Below the pieces are notes generated by a model. That model searched no databases. It had not been told where the DNA came from and saw nothing but the letters and a program-made list of their open reading frames with translations. From positions 25,413 to 69,972 of the forward strand of contig CAZNOF010000002.1 in assembly GCA_964574595.1 (NCBI GenBank): 44,560 nt of DNA, given 5' to 3'. The translations under genes were made by a program, and so were the position numbers. Positions 18,196 to 22,159 of this stretch are shown piece after piece (the stretch's first letter is position 1; each line of letters starts with the position of its first letter). This DNA is from an uncultured Pseudomonadales bacterium (GTDB lineage Bacteria; Patescibacteriota; Microgenomatia; UBA1400; PJMF01).

Positions 18196-18870
18196 CTAAT
18201 AGGTAAACGAAAGTTTCTGATTGATTGCGAGCTGGGTGGGGAGTTTGCTGACCACGTCAGCTAAACTCAGCTTTGTCGCCGACTTTGCATCGACAACCCA
18301 AAGTCTTGTACTGTCAACCAAATAGATAAAATCTTGGTTGGCAGAATTTTGCACAGTGAACGGCTGATAGAGGTTAAGCGTATATAACTGATTGTTAATG
18401 CTCAGCGTGACAGCAGTTCCCAAAATACTCATGGCTCCAAAGCCAGTGGGCACGACATTTGCCGGCTGCCAACCAGCCTCTTTATTGAGCACATAGCTGA
18501 CAGTGGCGGCGTATTTAACGCTACCATTCGATTGCAGCACCGCAAAGTTCACCACATTCGGCAACGTTCGCAGAACCGCGGCTTCATCTCGGGTTAAGAA
18601 TTGATCTTTTGCCCAAAAATATTCCGTTGTGGCGACCGGCGCAGGTGAGGGAATTACTGGTGGCAATCCAGTTGAGACAACTGGTGCATCACCGGGAGCT
18701 GGTATGAAAAACACTTCGTAGTTCACCACTCTTCCCAGCAGCACTGCCGCAATAGAGACGATGACAACCAACGCGGCAAGGGTCCAGTTCACTTTGAATT
18801 CGGAACCTCTTCCTCGTTTTGGTTTCTCGTCATTCTTCCGCTTCCGTTTCTGAAATCCAAAAAAATCCAT
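18196..18870 (-). CDS. Hypothetical single-pass membrane protein, first gene of a two-gene operon
   Basis: 224 aa; basic N-terminus, TM helix, Pro-rich linker. SD-like AGGAAGGA at 18888-18881. Confidence 0.7.
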   Translation of the reverse strand: MDFFGFQKRKRKNDEKPKRGRGSEFKVNWTLAALVVIVSIAAVLLGRVVNYEVFFIPAPGDAPVVSTGLPPVIPSPAPVATTEYFWAKDQFLTRDEAAVLRTLPNVVNFAVLQSNGSVKYAATVSYVLNKEAGWQPANVVPTGFGAMSILGTAVTLSINNQLYTLNLYQPFTVQNSANQDFIYLVDSTRLWVVDAKSATKLSLADVVSKLPTQLAINQKLSFTY

Positions 18871-18885
18871 GGTTTGTTATTCCTT

Positions 18886-19080
18886 CCTATGTTACCTTTC
18901 ACCAGGCGAGTAAATCTCACCTAGCGGATGAGTAACATAGGTCGGTATTGCAACAATTGTTAAAGAGCACTTCGTTGCGACGAAACTACGCAATGTAGCT
19001 AGCCACACCAAGTTCGCTCATTTGATTAGTAGCAGTATCTAGTTTTGCGGACAAAACTCCGTACTGATGCTAAAACAGTA
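18886..19080 (-). promoter_or_regulatory. Candidate structured 5' leader RNA
   Basis: 10-bp inverted repeat CCTATGTTAC/GTAACATAGG (18886-18895, 18932-18941) encloses a 9-bp stem with two G-U pairs on the minus strand. Further hairpins lie at 18971-18984, 19041-19058 and 19062-19080. Confidence 0.5.
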
Positions 19081-19124
19081 AGCACTGGTTGTAGAAAATG
19101 ATTATGGGTCTAAAAAAAGGAAAT

Positions 19125-19158
19125 AAAAAAACTGGCCCAAAGGATTCTCTGGCCAGTT
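19125..19158 (-). terminator. Intrinsic terminator downstream of the Nudix gene
   Basis: AACTGGCC-N13-GGCCAGTT followed by a T-run on the minus strand. Confidence 0.65.
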
Positions 19159-19281
19159 GTAATTACCTTCATTGTGTGAGTGAAGGTCAAGGCGATGTGG
19201 AGAAATTTCATTTCGAAATATCTCTTTTAAAGAACAAGATTATTTTATTATTAATTTATCGCTTGTCAAGCGGTTACAGAC

Positions 19282-22070: not shown

Positions 22071-22159
22071 GGAAGCGTGCCGGAGCGGTTAAACGGCCAG
22101 GTCTCGAAAACCTTGGGTTCGCAAGGACACGACGGGTTCGAATCCCTCCGCTTCCGCCA
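22071..22159 (+). tRNA. tRNA-Ser(CGA)
   Basis: Acceptor GGAAGCG/CGCTTCC, discriminator G, CCA encoded; anticodon loop CT-CGA-AA; long variable arm with GCAA loop. It has a C-U mismatch at the base of the anticodon stem and an apparent bulged C in the T stem. TATAAT at 22053-22058. Confidence 0.88.

Follow-up and report, generated by a model that had tools for sequence, protein, structure and literature searches.

The boxA element is the NusB-S10 loading signal of ribosomal RNA (rRNA) operons. Its Escherichia coli rrn consensus is quoted as UGCUCUUUAACA (PMC13753749), and GYTCTTTAANA has been used as the search consensus for Nus-factor targets (Baniulyte et al., 2017; PMC5725501). The element also lies 5' of clustered regularly interspaced short palindromic repeats (CRISPR) operons (PMC5725501; PMC13753749), and boxA control of protein genes has been shown for few gamma-proteobacterial genes, with few targets expected per genome: 0-7 sites in messenger RNA (mRNA) per genome were found when sought within 50 nucleotides (nt) of the start, and the suhB boxA stands 6 nt from its Shine-Dalgarno sequence (SD) (PMC5725501). 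In the literature no paper was found on boxA in Patescibacteria or the candidate phyla radiation (CPR), which is not proof of absence, comparable genes possibly being contained in Supplementary Data 1 of PMC5725501. Here, a putative boxA leader is described from the window, i.e., the 44,560-nt stretch of contig CAZNOF010000002.1 (positions 25,413 to 69,972, assembly GCA_964574595.1) assigned to the Patescibacteriota in GTDB. The leader occupies a 411-nt minus-strand gap flanked by a NUDIX gene (19731-19282) and a two-gene operon, and it carries an exact boxA directly 5' of a long hairpin that encloses the SD of the operon. The source genome (G000) comprises 1.43 Mb in 31 contigs and is 98% complete, the window lying within contig C2; genomes of its family measure 0.6-1.5 Mb (rounded), and the 16S genes of many members are split into several matches, two features that suggest an organism of the CPR type.

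The boxA motif and the hairpin around the ribosome-binding site

All leader coordinates are window positions on the minus strand, and gene starts in the source genome and its coding fraction (91%) were taken from a crude map of open reading frames (ORFs). The core features of the leader and its operon, with helices as in the minimum free energy (MFE) fold and their lengths in base pairs (bp), are:

18957-18968, minus strand: boxA GCTCTTTAACAA, immediately 5' of the SD-enclosing hairpin
18874-18956, minus strand: SD-enclosing hairpin, a single extended stem-loop with a 5-nt loop at 18915-18911
18956-18951/18879-18874, minus strand: basal helix, UUGUUG pairing with UAACAA
18945-18944/18883-18882, minus strand: CC/GG pairs, CC with the second GG of the SD
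18941-18931/18896-18886, minus strand: outer stem, 11 bp
18926-18916/18910-18900, minus strand: inner stem, 11 bp
18881-18888, minus strand: SD AGGAAGGA, its AAGGA ending 10 nt 5' of the ATG
18196-18870, minus strand: first operon gene, 224 amino acids (aa), with a basic N-terminus and one predicted membrane helix
16223-18193, minus strand: second operon gene, 656 aa, with a large domain after hydrophobic N-terminal segments

Together with the preceding T (18969), GCTCTTTAACAA gives UGCUCUUUAACA on the sense strand, the exact E. coli rrn consensus, and it also fits GYTCTTTAANA. With both strands of the genome counted, the exact 12-mer is found a single time. It is separated from the SD by 69 nt and from the ATG by 86 nt, with the hairpin of more than 66 nt between, and is predicted to be accessible, being unpaired in the MFE fold with a mean P(unpaired) of 0.59-0.72.

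The original prediction, made from the letters of the window, had described a structured minus-strand leader that sequesters the SD, with a 10-bp outer stem whose 3' arm overlaps the start of the SD and a 9-bp inner stem with two G-U pairs that work on this strand. Both stems are present. The core of the outer stem pairs CCUAUGUUAC (18941-18932) with GUAACAUAGG (18895-18886), its 3' arm covering the AGG of AGGAAGGA, and the 9-bp core of the inner stem, including two U-G wobbles, pairs CUAGGUGAG (18924-18916) with CUCGCCUGG (18910-18902); in total, the two stems contribute 11 + 11 stacked pairs to the hairpin and its base another 8. For the segment 18868-18972, the folding energy is -37.7 kcal/mol (z -6.43; 0/200 shuffles were as good), which is 7.5 kcal/mol more stable than its antisense strand (-30.2 kcal/mol), while a slightly different hairpin segment gave z -7.8 and the whole 246-nt leader gave z -5.40 on the sense strand and -3.67 on the antisense strand. 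The 105 nt preceding the start codon ranked 15th most stable among 1299 crude gene starts of the genome, and z -6 was reached by 0/70 random control leaders (drawn from 488 candidates). The SD-enclosing hairpin is far beyond chance, and it probably forms in the RNA and limits translation. The sequestration claimed earlier was borne out as an SD held in a very stable predicted helix, and the hairpins described further 5' as part of the leader were not significant (see below).

The hairpin is not a repeat element, since no second copy was found in its own genome. In run X1, whose DNA consists of 151-nt pieces from a relative ~95-97% alike, the piece over 18788-18938 differs at 18897 (minus-strand A to C, in the unpaired GAAAGG) and at 18820 and is uninformative for the pairing. 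On the crude ORF map, AAGGA is the commonest purine-rich 5-mer before the gene starts (7.6%), at a spacing of mostly 4-8 nt.

boxA in rRNA leaders, homologous operons and the source genome

The window boxA is not a chance match on the strength of four lines called independent here, namely the single 12-mer, the rrn leaders of relatives, the leaders of homologous operons, and the genome-wide pattern of GYTCTTTAACAA, and judged from these sequences it is quite probably a real Nus site. For the rrn leaders, the best boxA match within 450 nt upstream was taken from 30 16S leaders of family relatives and was exact in 2/30, within one mismatch in 12/30, and within two in 27/30, the other three having 3 mismatches. 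Matches in 29/30 leaders sit 85-325 nt before the 16S gene and share a common downstream consensus. On this sequence evidence the window motif is the rrn boxA of the lineage itself. The terminal part of contig C10 (L147, 1598-2229) contains the 3' end of a 23S gene cut by the contig end and a 5S gene, with a boxA-like ACACTTTAACAA in the spacer 16 nt before the 5S, whereas the assembly has no 16S gene.

Homologs of the 656-aa protein were identified in 4/101 family genomes and 14/286 order genomes (both including the source genome). Close homologous operons were found in G065 and G112 only, plus a truncated one in G095 (L016) that was left out when leaders were counted, as its gene runs off the end of the contig. 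Identity to the window proteins in G065 and G112 is 34-38% for the small and 24-26% for the large protein, and the two leaders contain boxA at one mismatch (GCTCTTTAAAAA in G065 and GCTCTTTCACAA in G112), at distances of 42 and 31 nt from the predicted start and 3' of a good promoter (TTGACA/TTGACT-17) located ~75-100 nt 5' of boxA; apart from this motif, the two leaders do not align with that of the window. In G065, a different 8-bp helix begins in the last two boxA bases and covers part of the SD, and the MFE fold of G112 pairs boxA with the start-codon region at a z of only -2.3. Occlusion of the start region by boxA-adjacent sequence may be a shared theme of these three modelled sequences.

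Searches for further relatives were carried out at the DNA and protein levels. The 430-nt intergenic DNA searched against 40 relatives returned nothing except a 37-nt match in G028, which lies inside a coding region and was dismissed as chance. A metagenome scan with the 224-aa protein gave no relative, the scan with an alignment gave only relatives at 20-31% identity, and a scan of genome contigs gave only the two known homologs. A boxA candidate in the f15 homologs was rejected, as GTTCTTTTACAA of L014 is one arm of a small hairpin with a compensatory change in L013. This small pre-SD hairpin stands ~40 nt before the small gene in L013 and L014 (G038, G168), pairing CGTTCT/AGAACG versus GTTCA/TGAAC.

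In the source genome, 5/5 copies of GYTCTTTAACAA are intergenic, in sense orientation, and 79-130 nt before an ORF despite the 91% coding fraction, although the copy at C5:49367, next to a stretch of N, is doubtful. Among 200 permuted motifs, the mean was 0.57 matches and never more than 1 in such a position. A matrix built from the rrn leaders of relatives only identified 18 sites above 12 bits, including 12 intergenic sites before a same-strand ORF and 6 in coding sequence; the window boxA scored 13.8 bits (rank 11), and another site is that of the C10 23S-5S spacer. Other boxA-type leaders, each with the sense motif 4-180 nt before an ORF, are:

C5:31395-31406, plus strand: boxA-type leader
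C5:32362-32373, plus strand: boxA-type leader
C5:33618-33658, plus strand: boxA-type leader
C12:19760-19771, minus strand: boxA-type leader
C12:18515-18526, minus strand: boxA-type leader
C13:4194-4205, minus strand: boxA-type leader
C13:2169-2180, minus strand: boxA-type leader
C30:1378-1389, minus strand: boxA-type leader
C7:15196-15207, minus strand: boxA-type leader

Several of the nine clearest leaders show the same order of elements, with CCTATAAT followed by a TTGACA-type hexamer, 17 nt, and TATAAT, then a small early hairpin and boxA. By reading, a long interrupted hairpin begins 9-27 nt past boxA in 7/9 leaders. The stretch from boxA to the start reached z -2 or lower in 6/9, with a mean z of -3.4 for the 9 leaders versus -0.46 for 70 controls (Mann-Whitney p 1.6e-4, a generous value given non-independent paralogs and unequal segment lengths). 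From one leader of the genome to the next, the hairpins that follow boxA have different sequences, and the SD is taken in only in the window leader. No family was found for the proteins encoded after the boxA leaders except one PD40 beta-propeller, and several have signal-peptide-like N-termini. From the sequences compared, the expansion of boxA leaders looks specific to this genome.

Genes for NusA, NusB, NusG, S10, Rho, and RNase III are present in the source genome. At C4:70580-71953 (L150 1243-2616, minus strand), 276 nt separate nusB, a 140-aa ORF, from its same-strand neighbour, the 224-aa ORF of RNase III. The region C13:1-4600 (L143) contains mixed units of transfer RNA (tRNA) and protein genes, in which the order tRNA, boxA, hairpin, small protein gene occurs twice.

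Promoter-like sites, upstream hairpins and neighbouring genes

Upstream of boxA, the intergenic region contains promoter-like, terminator-like, and further hairpin features:

19242-19269, minus strand: promoter-like TTGACA-16-TAAAAT, the best sigma-70-like match of the intergenic region (11/12), just past the NUDIX stop; a consensus match only
19225-19235, minus strand: second boxA-consensus match GTTCTTTAAAA, fitting GYTCTTTAANA and starting 7 nt past the -10 of the upstream promoter-like site
19119-19158, minus strand: intrinsic-terminator-like hairpin of ~12 bp with one bulge, then U7, ~80 nt past the second boxA
19101-19108, minus strand: CCCATAAT, including a -10-like CATAAT (19106-19101), a 7/8 match to CCTATAAT
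19030-19066, minus strand: two-tier hairpin, CAGUA/UACUG around AGUUUUG-UCCG-CAAAACU, within the non-significant 18955-19100
18971-18984, minus strand: small hairpin UUCGU-CGCA-ACGAA, 2 nt before boxA in a boxB-like position, unused in the MFE fold

The upstream hairpins named in the original prediction exist as sequences and failed as evidence of structure: 18955-19100 alone gave z -1.63, with 13/200 shuffles folding as well, and as a group the hairpins are not beyond chance and carry no weight. The -10-like CATAAT reported there is also present, and the best -35 at 17-nt spacing, TTTTTA (3/6), is poor. In the source genome, CCTATAAT is a promoter-associated 8-mer with 39/50 copies intergenic. 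It forms either the -10 itself or the sequence directly 5' of a TTGACA-17-TATAAT promoter, and the CCTATAAT promoter block also precedes the homologous operons of G065 and G112 and the metagenome locus L063. On the crude ORF map, no 5-mers are commoner than ATAAT and TATAA (8%) in the interval 4-20 nt ahead of predicted starts, and the sequence data suggest many leaderless or short-leader mRNAs with modest SD use in this genome.

The fold of 19108-19240 gave z -3.79. Judged from its sequence, the hairpin at 19119-19158 is either the terminator of the NUDIX gene or an attenuator within a long leader. The stretch 19269-19110 may accordingly encode a short separate RNA (~110 nt), represent the NUDIX terminator with a chance promoter, or be a leader read through by boxA-modified polymerase. 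A 33-aa ORF (19211-19110) crosses the terminator-like hairpin, and two hairpins in addition to the terminator-like one lie 3' of the second boxA.

The operon downstream of the leader is 2.65 kb long, and hydrophobic N-terminal segments were read from the translations of both of its proteins. No Pfam, NCBIfam, or PHROG family was found for the 224-aa and 656-aa proteins, and matches in the ESM Atlas were limited to membrane clusters without a name or with a loose one. A phage origin of the downstream genes was rejected, with no PHROG match for 10 proteins. Elsewhere in the window, ARAGORN identified a third tRNA (Ser, CGA) at 22071-22159 that is absent from the Rfam gathering-score scan.

Proposed function, rival explanations and known systems

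Our preferred, still tentative, reading of the sequence is that of an rRNA-operon-type Nus-factor leader placed on an mRNA, with the hairpin holding translation down. A protein-binding leader, one of the options originally raised, is plausible. The statement that the leader matches no known class holds for Rfam families, yet the exact boxA at 18968-18957, adjoining the 5' side of the hairpin, places it among Nus-factor/boxA leaders. In the proposed mechanism, NusB-S10 would bind boxA on the emerging nascent RNA and, with NusG and NusA, would turn RNA polymerase termination-resistant, including to Rho. The modified polymerase could then complete the long untranslated leader and the 2.65-kb operon despite poor ribosome loading. 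Ribosomes would load poorly because the stem-loop locks the SD in a helix of ~-37 kcal/mol that starts right after boxA, so that the hairpin would strongly restrain translation initiation in an essentially constitutive way and give a low translation rate. At least ~20 bp of double-stranded RNA is predicted and rnc is present in the genome, as for RNase III-processed leaders, cleavage itself being a prediction; with ~22 stacked pairs, the hairpin is a candidate site for RNase III, whose cut could expose the ribosome-binding site. Cleavage by RNase III likewise frees the ribosome-binding site in the phage lambda N leader, where translation is influenced by both this enzyme and the Nus complex. 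That the net effect of boxA in the window is protective rather than repressive is possible, and we advance it with some hesitation.

A wider and rather doubtful proposal, again from sequence, is that an rRNA-leader module (early hairpin, boxA, long stem) has been co-opted before at least 9 protein or tRNA-plus-protein units, mostly for lineage-specific secreted, membrane, or unknown proteins. Such a NusB-S10 regulon would operate without SuhB, with the long stems as RNase III processing or translation gates. If true, the window leader would be the extreme case in which the stem swallows the SD, and the second boxA (19235-19225), standing at the extreme 5' end of a transcript from the upstream promoter-like site, would form with the intrinsic terminator a processive-antitermination checkpoint for the operon; the rrn complex interferes with intrinsic termination (PMC13753749).

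Several observations weigh against a Nus-factor leader with a translational brake. The original prediction had named structural conservation upstream of homologs as its test, and this was found for boxA (one mismatch in G065 and G112) and failed for the SD-enclosing hairpin, which is absent from both of these leaders. With the genus represented by one genome, the hairpin pairing is left without covariation support. At up to one mismatch, boxA is missing in 10/13 more distant GTDB loci and in 78/80 metagenome loci, the one-mismatch boxA just 5' of the gene being limited to 2/80 distant metagenome loci (L058 and L063). The paralogous leaders of the genome-wide set are not independent, and the exact motif is present in 0-2 copies in each of five relatives, the level also given by the reversed pattern used as control. 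The 16S leader of the source genome itself is unassembled and its rrn boxA is deduced from relatives, and no SuhB-type (inositol-monophosphatase, Inositol_P) gene was found in the genome, SuhB being part of the E. coli complex. The transcription start of the leader is placed from promoter-like matches alone: the CATAAT -10 is paired with a poor -35, and the terminator-like hairpin separates the leader from the sole strong promoter match (19269-19242). Lastly, boxA represses rather than protects in the E. coli suhB leader (PMC5725501), and the boxA effect in the window leader may have either sign.

A repressive boxA of the suhB or lambda N type is nonetheless an unlikely explanation. Under it, the Nus complex would tether boxA to the polymerase, the loop and the hairpin would bar ribosomes from the SD, and the untranslated RNA would then be terminated by Rho, which is encoded in the source genome. 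For suhB, boxA-dependent translational repression followed by Rho termination was described, the repression survives up to 100 nt between boxA and SD, and the system was likened to lambda nutL, ~200 nt before N with structured RNA between (PMC5725501); the window boxA likewise lies 69 nt before its SD across a structured spacer. Known cases are, however, mostly Nus-factor autoregulation, whereas the motif here precedes ~9 unrelated function-unassigned genes, several of them secreted or membrane, and a repressor added to a hairpin that alone buries the SD seems redundant. Improbable to a similar degree is a hairpin acting alone, as a constitutive brake or a stabilising or processing stem, beside a boxA that is functionless here. 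This would agree with a hairpin that is lineage-specific and unique in the genome and with a rough expectation of 0.2-0.3 for one exact 12-mer in 2.9 Mb, which is not itself improbable, yet the motif also occurs in both homologous leaders and in the rrn leaders of relatives, and all 5 exact GYTCTTTAACAA copies stand in leaders.

Transcription starting within or 3' of the hairpin, with the region serving as promoter DNA and the TTAACA of boxA as -35, is very unlikely. The match concerned, TTAACA-18-TATGTT (18963-18934, 9/12), overlaps boxA and if used would mean that the hairpin is not made, and the prominence of TATAA and ATAAT before starts hints at short or absent leaders; the match is nevertheless weak and chance-expected (1.8 per region in shuffles), no -10-like hexamer lies 17 nt past the motif in 6 other boxA leaders, and the G-U pairs together with the 7.5 kcal/mol strand asymmetry favour RNA-level structure. 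A role of boxA as -35 box was rejected, with no consistent -10 after the six other sites examined. The remaining candidates, the ligand-sensing riboswitch and the RNA thermometer of the original prediction, would open the SD on a signal. Sequestration of the SD is the usual output of such elements and the whole leader folds at z -5.4, yet both are highly improbable. The leader had no Rfam match at gathering scores, and at E up to 10 only chance-level matches appeared, of which the best, to IS102 RNA, scored 23 bits where the cut-off is 46 and owed its score to the terminator hairpin. The structure is one long simple hairpin that lacks a junction. The partition function computed for the 266-nt leader keeps the G's of the SD paired with p ~1.0 from 10 to 55 C (P(unpaired) at most 0.01 up to 45 C and at most 0.04 at 55 C), and a thermometer was rejected on this ground. 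Opening the SD costs 11.1 kcal/mol in the ensemble, and alternative conformers exposing the SD, which the original prediction suggested looking for, did not materialise: with the whole 3' arm and SD forced open, the best fold is 14.9 kcal/mol worse and its sole new feature is a 5-bp helix of the 5' arm with the 3' half of boxA. A two-state switch was rejected as no near-isoenergetic SD-open fold exists. Both readings are unsupported because the hairpin is unconserved in homologs, does not melt, and has neither a near-isoenergetic open form nor an Rfam family.

If the Nus-factor leader with a translational brake is correct, Nus-factor/boxA control of mRNAs would extend to a reduced-genome lineage, with ~ten leaders in 1.4 Mb, most with a long stem, and would provide a testable link of antitermination, RNA processing, and translation initiation in hard-to-grow organisms. 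Since its motif does not differ from the E. coli consensus, the leader is directly usable and testable in E. coli reporters. For annotation, a striking SD-burying hairpin need not mean a riboswitch.

Among known systems, the E. coli rrn leader (boxB-boxA-boxC, with NusB-S10, NusG, NusA, S4, and SuhB) has an identical boxA core UGCUCUUUAACA, an untranslated leader with adjacent hairpins, and a long helix after boxA, and the same motif occurs in the 16S leaders of relatives of the source genome. In contrast, the window boxA precedes a protein-coding operon with a putative function read from sequence, its helix is local and encloses the SD whereas the E. coli helix pairs with a distant trailer, and no SuhB gene was found in the source genome. 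Rrn leaders of Bacillus subtilis resemble several boxA leaders of the source genome in having small early hairpins and then a boxA-like AUGAUCUUUGAAA (PMC13753749), although they belong to rRNA operons and their consensus differs. Riboswitches and thermometers that sequester the SD likewise bury it in a helix, unlike them the window leader having no aptamer-like architecture, Rfam family, melting, or alternative fold. The phage lambda N leader also combines a boxA-containing site, a long structured spacer, and an SD (discussion of PMC5725501); the window leader differs in lacking a conserved boxB and in its unique hairpin of ~83 nt, and relative to a lambda-type nut site no phage-family matches were found for the downstream proteins, no N-like protein having been sought. 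The gamma-proteobacterial mRNA boxA sites of suhB and of a ParE-like toxin gene in Citrobacter koseri likewise place the consensus in the 5' untranslated region of a protein gene (PMC5725501). Compared with these, the window boxA lies 86 nt before the ATG with a hairpin between, in a distant small-genome lineage with ~9-10 leader sites in 1.4 Mb. As judged from sequence, the window leader would thus extend mRNA-leader boxA to a distant lineage, in which ~ten such leaders occur without SuhB and the motif can stand far from the start codon, ahead of a stem that encloses the SD.

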